This document shows, piece after piece, positions 3,355 to 9,401 of a stretch of DNA of 31,155 bases; position 1 is the stretch's first letter; each line of letters begins with the position of its first letter. The notes beneath the pieces are model-generated. The model was given only the letters and a program-made list of their open reading frames with translations. It was not told the origin of the DNA and did not search any database. Origin of the DNA: a virus (lineage: Duplodnaviria; Heunggongvirae; Uroviricota; Caudoviricetes). The position numbers and the translations under genes are program-made. The DNA lies in the IMG/VR virus record IMGVR_UViG_3300029473_000204; one strand, given 5' to 3'.

Positions 3355-3626
3355 GCATTCGTATTGAAATTGGCGAACGTTATGTCGTTACCAGTGACAG
3401 CTTTCAGTTTATTCTCCACGAGAAAAAGAGAGCGGAAAGCGGTAAAAACGCCGGTCAGGAATGGCTGGCGGTGGTTGGTTATTACCCGAAATTAAGCCAG
3501 CTCGTTTCCGGCCTGATGCATCACGATATTCTGATCGGAAGCGCAAAGTCTTTTGCTGATTTAAACGCGCAGGTTGAGCAACTCAGCAGGCGTTGTTCAG
3601 AGGCTTTTGGCTCATATGGCCGTTAA
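3351..3626 (+). CDS. Hypothetical early protein (P2 orf83 position)
   Basis: ORF coupled to the upstream gene (ATGA overlap). Its 3' end overlaps the A start. Confidence 0.5.
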   Translation: MSIRIEIGERYVVTSDSFQFILHEKKRAESGKNAGQEWLAVVGYYPKLSQLVSGLMHHDILIGSAKSFADLNAQVEQLSRRCSEAFGSYGR

Positions 3627-5739
3627 AGCCTCCGGGCGTTTTGTCCCTCCGTCAGCATTTGCTGCAGGCACCGGTAAGGCGTTTACCGGTGCTTATGCAT
3701 GGAACGCGCCACGCGAGGCCGTCGGGCGCGAAAGACCCCTTACACGTGACGAGATGCGTCAGGTGCAAGGTGTTTTATCCACGATTAACCGCCTGCCTTA
3801 CTTTTTGCGCTCGCTGTTTACTTCACGCTATGACTACATCCGGCGCAATAAAAGCCCGGTGCACGGGTTTTATTTCCTCACATCCACTTTTCAGCGTCGT
3901 TTATGGCCGCGCATTGAGCGTGTGAATCAGCGCCATGAAATGAACACCGACGCGTCGTTACTGTTTCTGGCAGAGCGTGACCACTATGCGCGCCTGCCGG
4001 GAATGAATGACAAGGAGCTGAAAAAGTTTGCTGCCCGTATCTCATCGCAGCTTTTCATGATGTATGAGGAACTCAGCGATGCCTGGGTGGATGCGCATGG
4101 CGAAAAAGAATCGCTGTTTACGGATGAGGCGCAGGCTCACCTCTATGGTCATGTTGCTGGCGCTGCACGTGCTTTCAATATTTCCCCTCTCTACTGGAAA
4201 AAATACCGTAAAGGGCTGATGACCACGAGGCAGGCATATTCTGCCATTGCCCGTCTGTTTAACGATGAGTGGTGGACTCATCAGCTTAAAGGCCAGCGTA
4301 TGCGCTGGCATGAAGCGTTACTGATAGCTGTCGGGGAGGTCAATAAAGACCGTTCTCCTTATGCCAGTAAACACGCTATTCGTGATGTGCGTGCGCGCCG
4401 CCAGGCAAATCTGGAATTTCTTAAATCGTGTGACCTTGAAAACAGGGAAACCGGCGAGCGCATCGACCTTATCAGTAAGGTGATGGGCAGTATTTCTAAT
4501 CCTGAAATTCGCCGGATGGAGCTGATGAACACCATTGCCGGTATTGAGCGTTACGCCGCCGCAGAGGGTGATGTGGGGATGTTTATCACGCTGACCGCGC
4601 CGTCAAAGTATCACCCGACACGTCAGGTCGGAAAAGGCGAAAGTAAAACCGTCCAGCTTAATCACGGCTGGAATGATGAGGCATTCAATCCAAAGGATGC
4701 GCAGCGTTATCTCTGCCGTATCTGGAGCCTGATGCGCACGGCATTCAAGGATAATGATTTACAGGTCTACGGTTTGCGTGTCGTCGAGCCACACCACGAC
4801 GGAACGCCGCACTGGCATATGATGCTTTTTTGTAATCCGCGCCAGCGTAACCAGATTATCGAAATCATGCGTCGCTATGCGCTCAAAGAGGATGGCGACG
4901 AAAGAGGAGCCGCGCGAAACCGTTTTCAGGCAAAACACCTTAATCGGGGCGGTGCTGCGGGATATATCGCGAAATACATTTCAAAAAATATCGACGGCTA
5001 TGCACTGGATGGTCAGCTCGATAACGATACCGGTAAGCCGCTTAAAGATACTGCCGCGGCTGTTACCGCATGGGCGTCAACGTGGCGCATCCCGCAATTT
5101 AAAACGGTTGGACTGCCGACAATGGGGGCTTACCGTGAACTACGCAAATTGCCTCGCGGCGTCAGTATTGCTGATGAGTTTGACGAACGCGTCGAGGCTG
5201 CTCGCGCTGCCGCAGACAGTGGTGATTTTGCGTTGTATATCAGCGCGCAGGGTGGGGCAAATGTCCCGCGCGATTGTCAGACTGTCAGGGTTGCCCGTAG
5301 CCCGTCGGATGATGTTAACGAGTACGAGGAAGAGGTCGAGAGAGTGGTCGGCATTTACGCGCCGCATCTCGGCGCGCGTCATATTCATATCACCAGAACG
5401 ACGAACTGGCGCATTGTGCCGAAAGTTCCGGTCGTTGAGCCTTTGACTTTAAAAAGCGGCATCGCCGCGCCTCGGAGTCCTGTCAATAACTGTGGAAAGC
5501 CTGCCAGCAGTGATACTTCGTTACCGGCTCCCACGCCTTCTGAACATGCCGCAGCAGTGCTTAATCTGGTAGATGACGGTGTTATCGAATGGAGTGACCC
5601 GGAGGTTGTGAGGATTCTAATGGTAGTGTTAAAAGGAGGGGAAGCATACAAAATCAACAACGAAGACGATTATCACCGCAAAGTGCCGAACAAGTCAGCT
5701 CAGTGGCTAAAACAAAGAATAAATAGAGTGGGTAACTAA
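3616..5739 (+). CDS. A: Replication initiator endonuclease A (rolling-circle, HUH-type), about 707 aa
   Basis: N-terminus MAVKASGRFVPPSAF matches the P2 A start as I recall it. GYIAKYISKNIDGY carries the active-site tyrosines and HWHMMLF the metal-binding histidines. The track ORF starts upstream at 3574, so the true start is ambiguous between 3574 and 3616. Confidence 0.85.
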   Translation: MAVKASGRFVPPSAFAAGTGKAFTGAYAWNAPREAVGRERPLTRDEMRQVQGVLSTINRLPYFLRSLFTSRYDYIRRNKSPVHGFYFLTSTFQRRLWPRIERVNQRHEMNTDASLLFLAERDHYARLPGMNDKELKKFAARISSQLFMMYEELSDAWVDAHGEKESLFTDEAQAHLYGHVAGAARAFNISPLYWKKYRKGLMTTRQAYSAIARLFNDEWWTHQLKGQRMRWHEALLIAVGEVNKDRSPYASKHAIRDVRARRQANLEFLKSCDLENRETGERIDLISKVMGSISNPEIRRMELMNTIAGIERYAAAEGDVGMFITLTAPSKYHPTRQVGKGESKTVQLNHGWNDEAFNPKDAQRYLCRIWSLMRTAFKDNDLQVYGLRVVEPHHDGTPHWHMMLFCNPRQRNQIIEIMRRYALKEDGDERGAARNRFQAKHLNRGGAAGYIAKYISKNIDGYALDGQLDNDTGKPLKDTAAAVTAWASTWRIPQFKTVGLPTMGAYRELRKLPRGVSIADEFDERVEAARAAADSGDFALYISAQGGANVPRDCQTVRVARSPSDDVNEYEEEVERVVGIYAPHLGARHIHITRTTNWRIVPKVPVVEPLTLKSGIAAPRSPVNNCGKPASSDTSLPAPTPSEHAAAVLNLVDDGVIEWSDPEVVRILMVVLKGGEAYKINNEDDYHRKVPNKSAQWLKQRINRVGN

Positions 5740-5904: not shown

Positions 5905-6759
5905 TTAAGCAAATCTTAATATTTCTTTAGGTATGGGAGTTGCACAAGCTAATCTTCGTCTTTCTAACATTAAAGGATCCTTAGTAATTTTCAAATTATT
6001 ATTGACGGATAAATGTGATTTTAAGGATGACAACCAGAGCTTAATGAACTCAAAGACATATTTACCCTTAATGGCTCTTTCGTACGGTAATTCATTGAAG
6101 AATGAAATCAATGCTTTTACATCCTCTGAGTCTTCATTTACTTCATAATCTATTAACGTAGCATTATCCTTGATTGAGATATTTTTATACTCAATATTGA
6201 TAACTGAAGATATTTTATTGTAGAATCTTGTTTTCCCGTTTGCATTATGATTTACAAATAGAGGTCGGCACAATTCTTTTGCTAACTTTTGAAATAGTTG
6301 GAAGTCGGACTCAAAATCTTTTTTGATACGCGCCAATAAATCAGACTGTGTTATATCCATTTTGAACTCGTCCTTTAAATAGCTTTTTGTAGAGGAAGAG
6401 TTAATAATATAGTTTTCAATTGAATAACATGAAAGAGTAACAATGTTATCAGAATTATGCTCAAATAGGTCAAAGTCATGATCTACAAAAAAGTAGCAAT
6501 TGCTTAATATTTCTTGATCATTATGTTGAATTGCATGCTCGTATAACTCAATTATCTGTTTTTTTCCTTTCGCCACAAGGTGGCCTGCATTAGCATACTC
6601 TGGATTGTGTTTCATCCATTCATCGTATACAGGGTAATCATCAACACCTTCAAAAACAAAAATTTTATCGAAGGATGATGTTTTAAGTAATATCTCTTGC
6701 TTTAACGGATTTCTCGAAAAAGCTTCTTTTTTCATAGTATGTAGGAGATTGTTACTCAT
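5905..6759 (-). CDS. TOPRIM-like putative nuclease effector (DUF4435/AriB-like or RloB/AbiLii-like), 284 aa
   Basis: Translation has an acidic glutamate (KIFVFEGVDD) followed about 55 residues later by a DxD motif (FFVDHDFD), the arrangement of TOPRIM catalytic residues. No cysteine or histidine clusters, which argues against an HNH fold. Start overlaps the ATPase stop by 1 nt. AT-rich. Confidence 0.6.
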   Translation of the reverse strand: MSNNLLHTMKKEAFSRNPLKQEILLKTSSFDKIFVFEGVDDYPVYDEWMKHNPEYANAGHLVAKGKKQIIELYEHAIQHNDQEILSNCYFFVDHDFDLFEHNSDNIVTLSCYSIENYIINSSSTKSYLKDEFKMDITQSDLLARIKKDFESDFQLFQKLAKELCRPLFVNHNANGKTRFYNKISSVINIEYKNISIKDNATLIDYEVNEDSEDVKALISFFNELPYERAIKGKYVFEFIKLWLSSLKSHLSVNNNLKITKDPLMLERRRLACATPIPKEILRFA

Positions 6760-8225
6760 CAGACACTACCCTTTCGTACTTTCATAGCAGTTGCATAAGG
6801 GTCTAGCTCATTGTCAAATATGAATGGTGAATGCGTTATGGCAATTATTTGCCTAACATTTTCACCCGCATTCAAATCTGGTAATATCATCCGTTGCCAC
6901 TCTATCGATAACGAAAGTTCCGGTTCATCTATTAATATTATTTTAGGGGTATTATCATTAAGATAAATCGTAGCCATTAGCGAAATTACTTGTTTCTCAC
7001 CTGAAGATAAGTCATTAAGAGAGATGCGATCTCCTGTATATGTATCTTTTACGATAACTTCTAATCTTTGAGGATCAAATTTTAGAGATTTAGAATCACC
7101 TGCTGATGAAAGATATTTATCACAAACAGCAACGAATTTCTCAATTTTTGACTCTTGCTCTTTTGTTTCTTGTATAACCGAGTTTAATTGAGTTAAAAAA
7201 TATTTCAAGTAAGTGATGTTTTTTATTTCATCTTTGTTATATAGCAATTTAAGTGAATCAATTAAAGATTTCTTTTTTGATTCAGATGCTCTTTTTTCTC
7301 GCAAATTTGTACCAGTATCCTCAACTCGATTAAGGAATCTTTCCAAATCCTCTATAGAAGGTAGTGCATTTTGTTCTTTAGCTATCCGCTCATTGTTACC
7401 ATATTTAATTAAATCCTCAAGCATTTTGGCACTTAAAGATCTATAGCCAAGGTTTGATGTCCTTTCAATTTCTAAAGTTAGACCTTTTAAAGCATCTTCG
7501 ACATCCTTTAACCCATATGAAATGCCATCACGTTGTAGTTTCATCCCTCTTTTTCTACCAAACATGCGAGGGTGAAGATTTTCTCTTTCTTCCCTAGGTG
7601 TCGTCTCAAAACTTTTTTCTACCCTTCGATATGTTGGTAGAAATATAACGTCTAAATCCCTAAGCGCTTCAGCAACCACTCTAAAATTATTATTTTTAGA
7701 GTAATGCATTTTTAAATTATGCTGTTCCTTATTCTTCATTTTATTAACTATGTTGTCTTTTAGTTCTCTTAGAAAATGATTTATATAATCCTTTGGGTAT
7801 TTTACGGTATTATATAGGTCATTGACTAAAGCATCATCATTGAATTCATTTTGCTTCGAGTCAATTAAAGTCTTCGCAAACTTGGTAATATCACGATCAT
7901 CCCAAAATGACTCATTAAGAGAAAATCTTTCATTGAGGAATGCTTTTATTTCACCAAAAGGTATTAAAGATGCTCTTTCATTTTTAATTTCAACCTCCTC
8001 ATGATCAAGAATCTTTATGAATATTGATTTAAAATCAATTCTCATAAGGTTTGTAAAATCTTGCTCGAGAAGAAGTCTTATAGCATTAAGTATGGTTGTT
8101 TTTCCTGCGCCGTTCTCGGATACGAAAACTGTTGTCTTGCCTTTCATTTTCATAGTTATATCTTTATAACCATGAACTCCTGTCATTCTAAAATATTCAA
8201 TCGGGTAATTATTACGTGTAGTCAT
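6759..8225 (-). CDS. ABC-type (AAA_15/AAA_21, OLD/SMC-like) ATPase, candidate defence sensor (AriA-like or AbiLi-like), 488 aa
   Basis: Walker A VSENGAGKTTILNAIR near the N-terminus, a long charged helical insert, then ABC signature LSSGEKQ, Walker B ILIDEPELSLS and H-loop IAITHSP near the C-terminus. AAAGGAG ribosome-binding site 6 nt upstream of the ATG at 8225. Confidence 0.7.
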   Translation of the reverse strand: MTTRNNYPIEYFRMTGVHGYKDITMKMKGKTTVFVSENGAGKTTILNAIRLLLEQDFTNLMRIDFKSIFIKILDHEEVEIKNERASLIPFGEIKAFLNERFSLNESFWDDRDITKFAKTLIDSKQNEFNDDALVNDLYNTVKYPKDYINHFLRELKDNIVNKMKNKEQHNLKMHYSKNNNFRVVAEALRDLDVIFLPTYRRVEKSFETTPREERENLHPRMFGRKRGMKLQRDGISYGLKDVEDALKGLTLEIERTSNLGYRSLSAKMLEDLIKYGNNERIAKEQNALPSIEDLERFLNRVEDTGTNLREKRASESKKKSLIDSLKLLYNKDEIKNITYLKYFLTQLNSVIQETKEQESKIEKFVAVCDKYLSSAGDSKSLKFDPQRLEVIVKDTYTGDRISLNDLSSGEKQVISLMATIYLNDNTPKIILIDEPELSLSIEWQRMILPDLNAGENVRQIIAITHSPFIFDNELDPYATAMKVRKGSV

Positions 8226-8439
8226 TATGTCTCCTTTCGTCTACATTACTAAAATCAGTTAGTCAATTTTCTTAAAAACTAAAGTAACAGAAGCTTTCGA
8301 TATATTTGAACAGCTAATTCATACAGCAAAGTCAAACTTAATTCAACTATCCATCAGGCGGTGCACGATTCGTACAGCGCAACCCACAGTTGATTCAACT
8401 CGGATTATAATAATTGCAGATATTTTTTGCGATTTCCAG

Positions 8440-9100
8440 TGGCTACTAGCCATTTTATTGTGATCCCTAAACCACCTCCTGGGGAGGTGGTGATTGATCC
8501 TGTAAGGCTATAGCCTGAAGAATGCCCATGTCGGAATATCTCTGCTTACTCACCACAAGTAAAAGGAGACAAACTGACATGGGGTTTTACAGAAGTTCAT
8601 CATATGTATATTGGCGTTGCAAATATCACATAGTCTGGACGGCAAAGTACCGTTTTAGGATCCTGAGGGATAAATTGGGCAAGGAGCTGTACAGAACCAT
8701 CTATATTCTTTGCGGAATAAAAGATTGTGAGGTTCTGGAGTTAAATGTACAGGCAGATCATGTGCATCTTGTCGTAATAGTGCCGCCAAAAATCTCAATA
8801 TCTACTCTGATGGGGCACCTGAAAGGTCGCAGTGCAATCAGACTCTACAATCGATTCCCGCATATCAGGAAGAAGTTATGGGGAAACCATTTTTGGTCGT
8901 GGGGTTACTTTGTTGATACGGTAGGCGTGAACGAAGAAATTATCAGACGATATGCGAGGTATCAGGAAAAGATGGAGCAAACACATGAACAGCAGATGGA
9001 GTTGCTAGAGTAGAAAACGGAATATGACATTCGCCCCCCTTATAGGGGGCATTCTGAAAAGCCACCTCCTCAGGAGGTGGTCTTTTACTTCTACTGTGTT
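8440..9100 (+). mobile_element. IS200/IS605-family insertion sequence (IS200-like); boundaries approximate
   Basis: A Y1-transposase gene is flanked by near-identical perfect hairpins CCACCTCC-tgg-GGAGGTGG (about 8477-8495) and CCACCTCC-tca-GGAGGTGG (about 9061-9079), plus a CCCCCC-ttata-GGGGG hairpin at about 9045-9060. Exact ends cannot be fixed without a reference copy. Confidence 0.6.
8579..9013 (+). CDS. tnpA: IS200/IS605-family transposase TnpA (HUH Y1 transposase), about 144 aa
   Basis: WRCKYHIVWTAKYR near the N-terminus, HUH motif HVHLVV, and a C-terminal tyrosine region RRYARYQ. AAAAGGAGA ribosome-binding site before the ATG at 8579. The track ORF from 8522 is an upstream extension. 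Confidence 0.8.
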   Translation: MGFYRSSSYVYWRCKYHIVWTAKYRFRILRDKLGKELYRTIYILCGIKDCEVLELNVQADHVHLVVIVPPKISISTLMGHLKGRSAIRLYNRFPHIRKKLWGNHFWSWGYFVDTVGVNEEIIRRYARYQEKMEQTHEQQMELLE

Positions 9101-9213
9101 TGATGCATGAATTTGCATTCGAGTTTTTCTGAGCGTTGCCTTGTCAGTTGTAGGTCTTGTGGGGTTGGGGTGGCCTAATGCAACTGCATTATTAGCGCCC
9201 TATGAAGCGGGCG

Positions 9214-9232
9214 GGCGAGGCGGGGAAAGCAC
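9214..9232. other. cos: cos site (19-nt cohesive-end sequence of P2-like phages)
   Basis: Exact string GGCGAGGCGGGGAAAGCAC, which I recall as the P2 cohesive end, about 170 bp from the end of Q. The flanking GC-rich sequence resembles the P2 genome termini. Confidence 0.75.
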
Positions 9233-9401
9233 TGCGCGCTGGCGGTGGTGCTGATTTTATTTTTTCAGCGTCTGAGCGCGTCGTGATGGCGTTTAGATTG
9301 TTAGCCGGGGCGTTGGTGTGTCTGCGGGCTGTTTTGTGCGGTGGTGAGCGTGTGAGGGCGTGATGGCGGGTTGTAAAAAAGCCGCCCGCAGGCGGCGATG
9401 T

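Follow-up and report, generated by a model that had tools for sequence, protein, structure and literature searches.

An insertion sequence lies between a two-gene defence operon and the cos region of a P2-like prophage in the window studied here, by which we mean the whole stretch of viral DNA that was analysed (31,155 nucleotides); its features are collected in Table 1. The original prediction of an IS200/IS605-family element at this place is borne out by profile matches, by terminal hairpins and by recurrence in unrelated contexts, all of which identify an IS200-group element. The predicted span of 8440-9100 does contain the element, but its limits need correction, as the true ends are at 8459 and 9088 and the stretch 8440-8458 is the insertion target. 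The predicted distances of about 215 bp to the defence operon and about 120 bp to cos are approximately right: the start of ariA (8225) is 233 bp from the true left end, and the true right end is 125 bp from the cohesive end of cos (GGCGAGGCGGGGAAAGCAC, 19 nt, 9214-9232). The ends were set by aligning copies of the element from unrelated contexts and were confirmed at yafE-mltD and yfeX-pbp4b, where sites filled by sister copies were compared with empty ones; they are constant across the eight distinct contexts examined. The element carries only one gene, tnpA, without tnpB, and has no terminal inverted repeats, since the termini as read from the sequence (TGTGATCC... and ...CTTTTAC) are not inverted. 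In Vibrio cholerae, the IS200-group element IS1004 is likewise compact (about 628 bp) and has just one gene, for the transposase. The element found here is of a well-known kind that is already labelled in public annotation, and the finding itself is routine. It should be noted that RefSeq labels the protein only as 'IS200/IS605 family transposase', whereas copies of IS200C carry an element-specific name; no element-specific name for the present insertion sequence was found among protein names in public sources.

Table 1. Positions of the insertion sequence, its parts and its neighbours in the window.
Feature	Positions	Strand	Details
PARIS-like two-gene defence operon	5905-8225	-	ariA 6759-8225, ariB 5905-6759; transcribed away from the insertion sequence
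Insertion target	8440-8458	+	Terminator-like hairpin TGGCT-ACT-AGCCA 8440-8452, TTTTAT 8453-8458; not part of the insertion sequence
Insertion sequence, 630 bp	8459-9088	+	Runs TGTGATCCC...GGTCTTTTAC; 1-nt ambiguity (8460-9089)
Candidate guide G_L	8468-8471	+	TAAA; 4 nt 5' of the left hairpin foot; by analogy to IS608 (PMC3201880)
Left subterminal hairpin (IP_L)	8471-8491	+	ACCACCTCC-TGG-GGAGGTGGT; element nt 13-33; inverted repeat I15
tnpA 5'UTR stem-loop	8525-8583	+	Inverted repeat I2; predicted to pair the ribosome-binding site and start codon; element nt 67-125
tnpA, 144-aa Y1 HUH transposase	8579-9013	+	RefSeq WP_042815548; H61-V-H63, catalytic Y125 (predicted)
GC-rich hairpin	9033-9050	+	GCCCCC-N6-GGGGGC; just downstream of the tnpA stop; kept in sister copies
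Right end	9058-9088	+	Candidate guide AAAG 9058-9061, hairpin CCACCTCC-TCA-GGAGGTGG 9062-9080, TCTT, terminal TTAC
cos region	9104-9232	+	TGCAT-N5-TGCAT 9104-9118; ~55-bp P2/P4 core about 9179-9232; cohesive end 9214-9232

The transposase gene was recognized by its match to Pfam Y1_Tnp (PF01797; 128.2 bits, E=2.3e-37) and to the NCBIfam equivalog transpos_IS200 (NF033573; 139.9 bits against a cutoff of 55). Its reading frame (8522-9013) includes the start annotated in RefSeq at 8579, with the ribosome-binding site AAGGAGA at 8563-8569. The predicted Y1 HUH transposase with an HVHLVV motif and a C-terminal tyrosine is upheld by alignment to solved structures, in which H61, H63 and Y125 fall on the HUH motif and catalytic tyrosine of 2ec2, of ISDra2 (2xm3) and of IS608 (2a6m); Y125 also aligns with Y125 of IS200C. 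These are the predicted catalytic residues of the enzyme. In TnpA of IS200, the substitution Y125F is catalytically dead (PMC4513863).

Two almost identical perfect hairpins bracket this gene, as originally proposed. Across the 31-kb window the pattern CCACCTCC-N3-GGAGGTGG matches exactly twice (8472-8490 and 9062-9080), while none is expected from 100 shuffles, and the two are near-identical direct copies on the same strand. Both subterminal hairpins fold as single-stranded DNA (z = -3.6 and -5.9). On the model of the homologous IS608 and ISDra2, the transposase would act as a dimer that binds the top-strand hairpins in single-stranded DNA, cutting 3' of TTAT in the left flank and 3' of TTAC at the end of the element. 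The left cleavage or target tetranucleotide would accordingly be TTAT at 8455-8458 and the right cleavage site TTAC at 9085-9088. Both would be positioned by pairing with 4-nt candidate guides, TAAA on the left and AAAG on the right, each of which adjoins the 5' foot of its hairpin. The guide/cleavage pairs, AAAG/TTAC on the right and TAAA/TTAT on the left, show a compensatory difference at the last position. A single-stranded circle would then be excised and pasted 3' of a T-rich tetranucleotide without duplication of the target ('peel and paste').

IS608 of Helicobacter pylori and ISDra2 of Deinococcus radiodurans are the mechanistic paradigms here, and the transposase is homologous to theirs (E = 1e-16 to 7e-20 to solved structures). 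They likewise have subterminal hairpins at both ends and insert 3' of a tetranucleotide without duplication, and the candidate pair AAAG/TTAC at the right end is the same as the G_L/C_L pair at the left end of IS608 (PMC3201880). However, the present element lacks the tnpB of IS608 and ISDra2, its palindromes are perfect where theirs are imperfect, and it has a target of T[T/A][A/G]T beside a hairpin rather than a bare TTAC. The distance from the proposed cleavage site to the hairpin foot is about 12 nt on the left and 8 nt on the right, compared with 19 and 10 in IS608.

In overall plan the element resembles IS200 of Salmonella enterica and IS200C of E. coli, which share with it a lone tnpA, a Y1 HUH transposase with Y125 and the lack of terminal inverted repeats. 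The terminator hairpin at the left end of IS200 occupies nt 12-34 and a second inverted repeat, which sequesters the ribosome-binding site, nt 69-138 (PMC4513863), against nt 13-33 and 67-125 here. The sequences themselves are distant: the hairpins are unrelated to those of IS200 and IS200C, the transposase is only 38% identical to that of IS200C, and IS200 is longer (707 bp compared with 630 bp, and a TnpA of 152 aa compared with 144 aa).

The counterpart of the second inverted repeat is strongly structured in the present element. The RNA of 8498-8600 folds at -34.8 kcal/mol (z = -4.73), and none of 200 shuffled sequences is equally stable. By analogy, this 5'UTR stem-loop is a putative IS200-type translational repressor element, which would bury the ribosome-binding site and AUG, while the left-end hairpin would stop incoming transcription; transposase synthesis is probably low, as in IS200. 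An RNA resembling art200/STnc490 was not found by Rfam search of 8200-9400 at E<=1, in which the sole match, PhotoRC-I, was dismissed as chance (15 bits against a threshold of 45). The promoter scan predicted no antisense promoter in the element; it returned a single site within tnpA, which looks sub-threshold, and no site that faces outward, fewer than in shuffled sequence.

Related copies, 93-98% identical, were located at 423 places spread over 381 of the 5426 complete E. coli genomes (a maximum of nine in one genome), and also on 639 plasmids of Escherichia, Salmonella, Shigella and Klebsiella. Thus, homologous DNA proved not to be native phage sequence devoid of hairpins, as an element with the same ends is found in unrelated contexts in chromosomes and plasmids. 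Sister copies compared with the empty K-12 sites at yafE-mltD and yfeX-pbp4b show no target duplication and an insertion after TTTTTAT, a sequence already in place at the empty sites. In the window, the left end directly follows TTTTAT and, before it, a hairpin at 8440-8452, which folds and was found by the terminator scan. The same holds for 8 of 8 independent contexts, where the left end is immediately preceded by a hairpin and a T-run that ends in T[T/A][A/G]T (TTAT in five, TTGT in two, TAAT in one), while only 5.2% of such tetranucleotide sites in the background have a hairpin and T-run. In other strains, IS200C occupies exactly the same two terminators, yafE-mltD and yfeX-pbp4b.

This family of elements inserts directly behind structures that resemble terminators, and the copy in the window, which lies in cargo DNA of the cos-proximal defence hotspot of P2, follows this pattern with a small hairpin-TTTTAT. 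We speculate that IS200-group elements choose their targets by structure, in that the complex of transposase and circle would recognise the terminator-like hairpin and T-run as a mimic of the element's own right end (hairpin, TCTT-TTAC). We offer this only tentatively and would ourselves lean against it, but if true, it would account for the constant short spacing between such hairpins and all 8 of the insertions examined, and for the same two terminators being hit independently by transposases that are so divergent (38% identity between the present element and IS200C); the insertion in the P2 hotspot would be one more hairpin-TTTTAT event. Strict targeting of a hairpin and T-run, common to IS200C, is of possible interest to specialists in single-strand transposition.

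The insertion in the window is tightly linked to its neighbourhood. A 3.8-kb block from 5405 to about 9241, comprising the defence genes, the insertion sequence and the left part of cos, is 99.8-100% identical in B7A, GN4143, GZ2408C and an IMG/VR contig. The backbone flanking this block is only 93.6-98% identical, and integrases and attachment sites differ. At least three diverged backbones carry the cassette with its insertion sequence; between them they have two types of integrase and two attachment sites, and their host strains come from three continents. The near-identity of the block across diverged backbones and integrases indicates that the insertion sequence travelled with the cassette. 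The exact TnpA allele was found in the same arrangement, at a single position, in 24 of the 24 contigs read, and the exact AriA likewise in the filled arrangement in 24 of 24. The window itself matches GN4143 in its integrase and left arm (99.9%) and is about 2% different in its right arm from all complete genomes examined; for these reasons the prophage of strain B7A, considered as a match for the window, was rejected.

An empty counterpart of this insertion was sought in several collections. Among 5426 E. coli genomes, searched with joined flanks by megablast and blastn, there was none, and the left flank was found in three genomes, all filled. In the phage collection there was no empty site either, with matches only to backbone homology, and a left-flank pattern search of IMG/VR returned a single contig, also filled. 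A gapped pattern specific to the empty state had no matches in viral, genome or metagenome contigs, and neither did the left flank alone in metagenome contigs. Relatives of AriA in species-representative genomes are at most 35% identical and belong to unrelated bacteria, and do not help to place the insertion. Since the searches returned filled sites only, the insertion point in the window is taken from the sister copies, and the junction expected without the element would read ...AGCCATTTTAT|TTCTACTG, with the 1-nt ambiguity.

Based on these data, we are confident that 8459-9088 is a complete tnpA-only IS200-group insertion sequence that stems from a single ancestral insertion and is now a passive, probably neutral passenger of its cassette. 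Insertion would have occurred once, in the ancestor of the PARIS-like cassette, which would then have carried the element passively between P2-like backbones. What the element is, where it ends, how it is built, where its relatives occur, which targets they take and how closely it is linked to the cassette are shown directly by the sequences, whereas the cleavage chemistry, the pairing of the guides, the regulation and the neutrality are inferred.

A passive element may also be a dead one. It is quite conceivable, though we put it somewhat short of even, that the insertion sequence is a relic, intact in outline but with an inactive transposase allele and fixed as a scar in the cassette. Compared with the multi-copy consensus, the allele in the window differs by seven nonsynonymous and five synonymous codons, whereas two active-looking copies, CUPF09 and PS2C, differ from each other by one nonsynonymous and six synonymous codons. 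The replacements include P22A, P59A and R108W, of which R108W and P22A are at positions conserved in the IS200 group (2ec2 and IS200C both have R108). Sister copies also differ from the element in the loop of the left hairpin and at nt 4. B7A, GN4143 and GZ2408C have one copy per genome, and none of the 24 contigs read had the allele anywhere else, so that it may have ceased to transpose. Against this, tnpA is a full-length reading frame with the HUH motif and Y125 intact, and both subterminal hairpins are perfect. Position 59 is also alanine in IS200C and position 22 is valine in ISDra2, and therefore the substitutions are not clearly inactivating; moreover, the counts of codon differences are small, and even intact IS200 is notoriously inactive (PMC4513863). 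We conclude that the allele in the window may be losing activity.

The passenger reading has also to be weighed against a role in defence. The adjacent operon is PARIS-like (AriA/AriB) as judged from its predicted products: that of ariA is an ATPase of Pfam AAA_15/AAA_21 (PADLOC AriA, 2e-31), and that of ariB is annotated in RefSeq as DUF4435 (PADLOC AriB, 4e-18). It lies in the cos-proximal hotspot of P2 and P4 known to harbour PARIS (Rousset et al. 2022, PMC9122126), with the insertion sequence in the cargo between gpA and cos-gpQ, beside AriA and AriB. Neither IS200 nor the words 'insertion sequence' and 'transposase' occur in the main text of that study. The AriA of the window is a rare variant, whose closest relatives in reference genomes of other species are at most 35% identical. 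An effect of the element on operon expression, as originally suggested, could take the form of insulation from late phage transcription by bidirectional terminator-like hairpins, or of a promoter or operator supplied or displaced. Such a role would explain why the element is retained in every copy of the cassette, and indeed this PARIS variant was never observed without it (24 of 24 contigs for each of the exact TnpA and AriA); however, a single origin of a rare cassette explains complete linkage equally well. The right end is terminator-like in the terminator scan, on the + strand only, and by eye the opposite strand shows this hairpin with no more than four T behind it (CTTTTCAG), which the scan did not return; the left hairpin of IS200 is a known bidirectional terminator (PMC4513863). 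Yet a strong terminator is already present after gene Q (9381-9396). As for a promoter, a minus-strand TATAAT with a weak -35 can be seen by eye about 25 bp from the left end of the element, below the scan threshold, but tnpA is oriented away from ariA and the scan predicted no promoter that faces outward, which leaves transcription of ariA from the element unsupported rather than excluded. In P2, the old-tin promoter is only 44-46 nt from the start codon, and the operon of GZ2408C carries an IS1 insertion, which argues against strong selection on the locus there. Taken together, we consider a regulatory role unlikely, and the predicted influence on the defence operon finds no support; comparative data suggest that the effect on its expression is most likely neutral.

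Even less probable, in our view, is that the element damages packaging, by separating cos from sequence to its left or by adding hairpins near cos, such that terminase recognition is lowered or abolished and the prophage is defective. The concern, raised in the original prediction, is understandable given the position of the right end, which is only 15 nt from TGCAT-N5-TGCAT (9104-9118), the outermost conserved motif of the cos flank, and 4 nt from the position of a third TGCAT-like element in some relatives. P2 and P4 share a 55-bp cos core, and flanks beyond it affect the efficiency of cosmid transduction (PMC9594776). However, the conserved cos elements (9104-9232) are all intact and all to the right of the insertion sequence. 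Comparison with other P2-like phages places the beginning of backbone homology at 9165-9180, and in every one of those compared the DNA to the left of the conserved cos elements is non-homologous cargo, and thus no conserved signal has been parted from cos; the third TGCAT is also missing in PhiR44_1 and pro483. The 99.8-100% identity of the cassette on at least three backbones and three continents is hard to square with a phage that cannot be packaged, and with the additional 630 bp the prophage is still about 31 kb, less than the 33.6 kb of P2. An impairment of packaging is thus unsupported, with the element outside every conserved cos element and its cassette spread among P2-like backbones, and from comparison of these sequences the effect on packaging is most likely neutral.

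Some observations on this region stand apart from the insertion sequence. TGCAT-N5-TGCAT is invariant in seven P2-like phages, the window shares it with P2 and five others of this kind, and it has the same distance in P4; its position about 110 nt from the cohesive end in these phages may be of interest to packaging specialists. The edge of the cassette-exchange block falls at cos. In addition, the last ~90 residues of the gpA of the prophage are replaced, which makes its present-day viability uncertain irrespective of the element.

Finally, we find it scarcely credible that the unit is something other than a transposable element, be it a gene native to the phage or a REP-associated tyrosine transposase (RAYT) that has been domesticated and is accompanied by its cognate repeats. 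The flanking pair of near-identical palindromes and a weak secondary match of TnpA to NCBIfam REP_Tyr_transpos speak for this reading, but it is already contradicted: that match scores 25 bits where the cutoff is 80, whereas the score for the IS200 equivalog is above its own cutoff; the palindrome is restricted in the window to the two ends of the element; hundreds of chromosomes and plasmids contain the whole 630-bp unit, always with these ends; and other P2-like phages lack it.

For annotation, the value of this analysis lies in the exact ends of the element, 8459-9088, and in its placement within hotspot cargo just outside the conserved cos signal, where it is fixed as the passenger of a single PARIS-like cassette transferred between P2-like backbones. 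This position and this linkage therefore provide no evidence of a packaging defect or of a deregulated defence operon. The targeting of hairpins and T-runs, the TGCAT-N5-TGCAT motif and the edge of the exchange block may be of interest to specialists in single-strand transposition and in P2/P4 packaging.

The DNA between the defence operon and the cohesive end very probably contains a complete insertion sequence (IS) of the IS200 group. Its tnpA gene lies between the start of ariA, a leftward ATPase gene, and the P2-type cohesive end, and has a ribosome-binding site, AAGGAGA, 9 nt 5' of the start codon. TnpA matches Pfam Y1_Tnp (E=2.3e-37) and scores 139.9 bits against the NCBIfam IS200 equivalog (cutoff 55); an end-to-end alignment with solved Y1 transposases, including ISDra2 and IS608 TnpA, matches H61-V-H63 to the HUH motif and Y125 to their catalytic tyrosine. 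A REP-associated transposase was considered and rejected (25 bits against a model threshold of 80). The window (31 kb) has exactly two copies of the palindrome CCACCTCC-N3-GGAGGTGG, at 8472-8490 and 9062-9080, where 0 were expected; both fold into stable single-strand hairpins. This pair and the transposase matches, with which the RefSeq annotation agrees, therefore bear out the original prediction of a Y1 HUH transposase gene bracketed by two near-identical hairpins between the defence operon and cos. The finding is ordinary, and the element is already annotated as IS200-type in public genomes.

Coordinates of the element, its neighbours and the sites compared with it (window positions unless a retrieved locus, L, is named)
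Feature	Position	Strand	Remarks
ariB	left of IS		DUF4435 protein; PADLOC AriB 4e-18
ariA	6759-8225	-	AAA_15/AAA_21 ATPase; PADLOC AriA 2e-31
Insertion target	8440-8458		small hairpin TGGCT-ACT-AGCCA, then TTTTAT
Left hairpin	IS nt 13-33
Imperfect inverted repeat	IS nt 67-125 = 8525-8583		RNA fold pairs ribosome-binding site and AUG
tnpA	8579-9013	+ (rightward)	144 aa; identical DNA annotated 'IS200/IS605 family transposase' in RefSeq
Cohesive end	9214-9232		GGCGAGGCGGGGAAAGCAC; P2-type
TGCAT-N5-TGCAT in P2	L094:5962-5979
E. coli K-12 empty sites, yafE-mltD and yfeX-pbp4b terminators	L089:2060-2100; L091:4395-4440

In all fetched contexts (copies beside mltD, pbp4b, trhN on an IncHI2-type plasmid, iolE and yehC, and on an IncX1 plasmid), homology begins at TGT[T/G]ATCCCTAAACC and ends at GGAGGTGGTCTTTTAC. 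E. coli K-12 has empty sites at yafE-mltD (...GGTGCCTTTTTAT/TATCTGG...) and yfeX-pbp4b (...CTGGCCTTTTTAT/TACTTCTGC...), and comparison of filled with empty sites gives an element of 629-630 bp, without target duplication, inserted directly after TTTTTAT 3' of a terminator hairpin, with a 1-nt ambiguity. Ends transferred from these sister copies place the IS at 8459-9088; of the span first proposed, 8440-9100, the IS is thus there, but 8440-8458 is target and lies outside it.

The anatomy resembles that of IS200, which carries a bidirectional terminator at nt 12-34 (nt 13-33 for the left hairpin here), a Shine-Dalgarno-sequestering stem at nt 69-138 (nt 67-125 here; RNA fold -34.8 kcal/mol, z = -4.7) and, as in our element, the catalytic residue Y125 (PMC4513863). 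However, IS200 is longer, at 707 bp, the transposase of its E. coli relative IS200C is just 38% identical, and an Rfam scan gave no match to an art200-like RNA. At the right end, the 4 nt directly 5' of the hairpin foot are AAAG and the tetranucleotide at the predicted cleavage point is TTAC; the left end has TAAA and TTAT in these places, a compensatory change at the last position (G/C versus A/T) that would fit IS608-type guide pairing. At the left end of IS608, AAAG and TTAC likewise serve as guide and cleavage site (PMC3201880).

By megablast, 381 of 5426 complete E. coli genomes carry the element, at 423 places (329 of these plasmid-borne) and with as many as nine in one genome; it is also present in 639 plasmids from Escherichia, Salmonella, Shigella and Klebsiella. 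Many E. coli plasmids (search matches H104-H110) hold only its first 107 nt, the left end and hairpin, at 97% identity and without an annotated gene; these resemble a left-end remnant that has become widespread. In 8/8 independent contexts, the 45 nt 5' of the left end form a GC-rich hairpin and then a T-run, whose final bases are TTAT five times, TAAT once and TTGT twice; a looser form of this criterion, chosen post hoc, holds for 5.2% of the T[T/A][A/G]T sites in a control of ~45 kb. IS200C occupies the same two terminators, yafE-mltD and yfeX-pbp4b, in other strains, and there its insertion points (L090, L100) and those of our element (L002, L003) are 0-3 nt apart. A survey found that terminator-like sequences are enriched directly 5' of IS elements, with the strongest excess for IS200/IS605, and interpreted this as limiting transposase expression (PMC13548323). 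IS200-type transposition may recognise the target hairpin mechanistically, or insertions behind hairpins may merely survive better.

The window tnpA differs from the multi-copy consensus allele by seven nonsynonymous (L3F, H9Y, P22A, P59A, R108W, V126A, H128Y) and five synonymous codon changes, while two consensus-type copies are apart by one and six, respectively. Some of the changed positions also vary in distant family members, so inactivation of the window allele is a possibility. No second site of this allele was seen in the 24 contigs read.

The window is a P2-like prophage; from the integrase to cos, its left arm matches the prophage beside pflA in E. coli GN4143 at 99.9% identity. The genes left of the IS are assigned, by their matches, to a PARIS-like pair and occupy the defence hotspot near cos that Rousset et al. 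described between gpA and gpQ (PMC9122126); ariA and tnpA are divergent. The AriA-like ATPase is rare, its upstream flank (8226-8458) being present in only 3/5426 complete E. coli genomes. In GZ2408C (L093:10749-12380), IS1 lies between ariA and a shortened ariB, so the operon has probably been inactivated in this strain, with no change to the IS200-type element. The replication endonuclease gpA (3616-5739, +) matches P2 gpA at 97% identity through residues 1-667, with the last ~90 residues swapped for ~34 unrelated ones, which puts the left junction of the cassette within gene A; all three complete genomes have the gene marked in RefSeq as frameshifted or incomplete.

The window, B7A, GN4143, GZ2408C and an IMG/VR contig share, at 99.8-100% identity, a block that begins inside gpA (~5405) and stops shortly after the cohesive end (~9241); the IS itself is 100% identical in all five, and the flanking DNA on both sides 93.6-98%. 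These prophages do not have the same integrase, immunity modules or attachment site, which is yegR in some and pflA in others. The insertion is therefore older than the spread of the cassette over several backbones. No more than about 10-50 nt separate the right edge of the block from the cohesive end (window versus L001, L092, L093 and L008), and right of cos the window differs by ~2% from GN4143 despite the common left arm; this suggests that arms were reassorted or that recombination took place at cos or close to it. Exact-sequence look-ups indexed the window TnpA allele in 423 blocks and AriA in 155, and the two stood together in the same arrangement in 24/24 contigs read for each. A single origin explains this linkage, because AriA is without close relatives elsewhere: the nearest among 185,579 species-representative genomes, from Marinobacter, Porticoccus, cyanobacteria and others, do not exceed 35% identity. 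No empty site of the window insertion was found in any collection searched. In GCA_021430005 (L104) and GCA_051381295 (L114), the genes that follow ~1.1 kb after the IS are for lysis, not for portal and terminase; both are a deleted prophage keeping the ariB-ariA-IS block.

BLAST homology with other P2-like phages starts at 9165-9180, and DNA further left than the cos flank is non-homologous cargo in each phage. A TGCAT-N5-TGCAT direct repeat at 9104-9118 is invariant when P2, five other P2-like phages and the window are aligned. The satellite P4, packaged by the P2 terminase, is said to have just a 55-bp cos core in common with P2 (PMC9594776); it also carries the repeat (L120:215-229), 110 nt from its right end; in the window it stands 109 nt left of the cohesive end. 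Functional cos therefore probably extends to about 9104, and the TGCAT repeats may be terminase recognition elements. The repeat lies well outside the 55-bp core, which a related TGCAA-C-TGCAT (9179-9189) opens. The proximity of the IS to cos had raised doubt over normal packaging. This doubt finds no support, as the last nucleotide of the IS, 9088, is 15 nt short of the conserved motif, and the occurrence of the cassette on several backbones argues against a packaging-dead phage, although recombination between resident prophages may also have spread it.

The suggested influence on defence-operon expression fared no better: a promoter scan predicted no outward promoter from the IS, and nothing favours an effect over passive hitch-hiking. 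It is conceivable that the IS insulates the operon through its terminator-like ends (at the right end, the scan found this for the + strand, and reading by eye alone for the complementary one); however, gene Q is already followed by a strong terminator (9381-9396). The IS is thus carried by a PARIS-like cassette and lies just outside cos, and we infer that it is neutral for packaging and for defence-operon expression.
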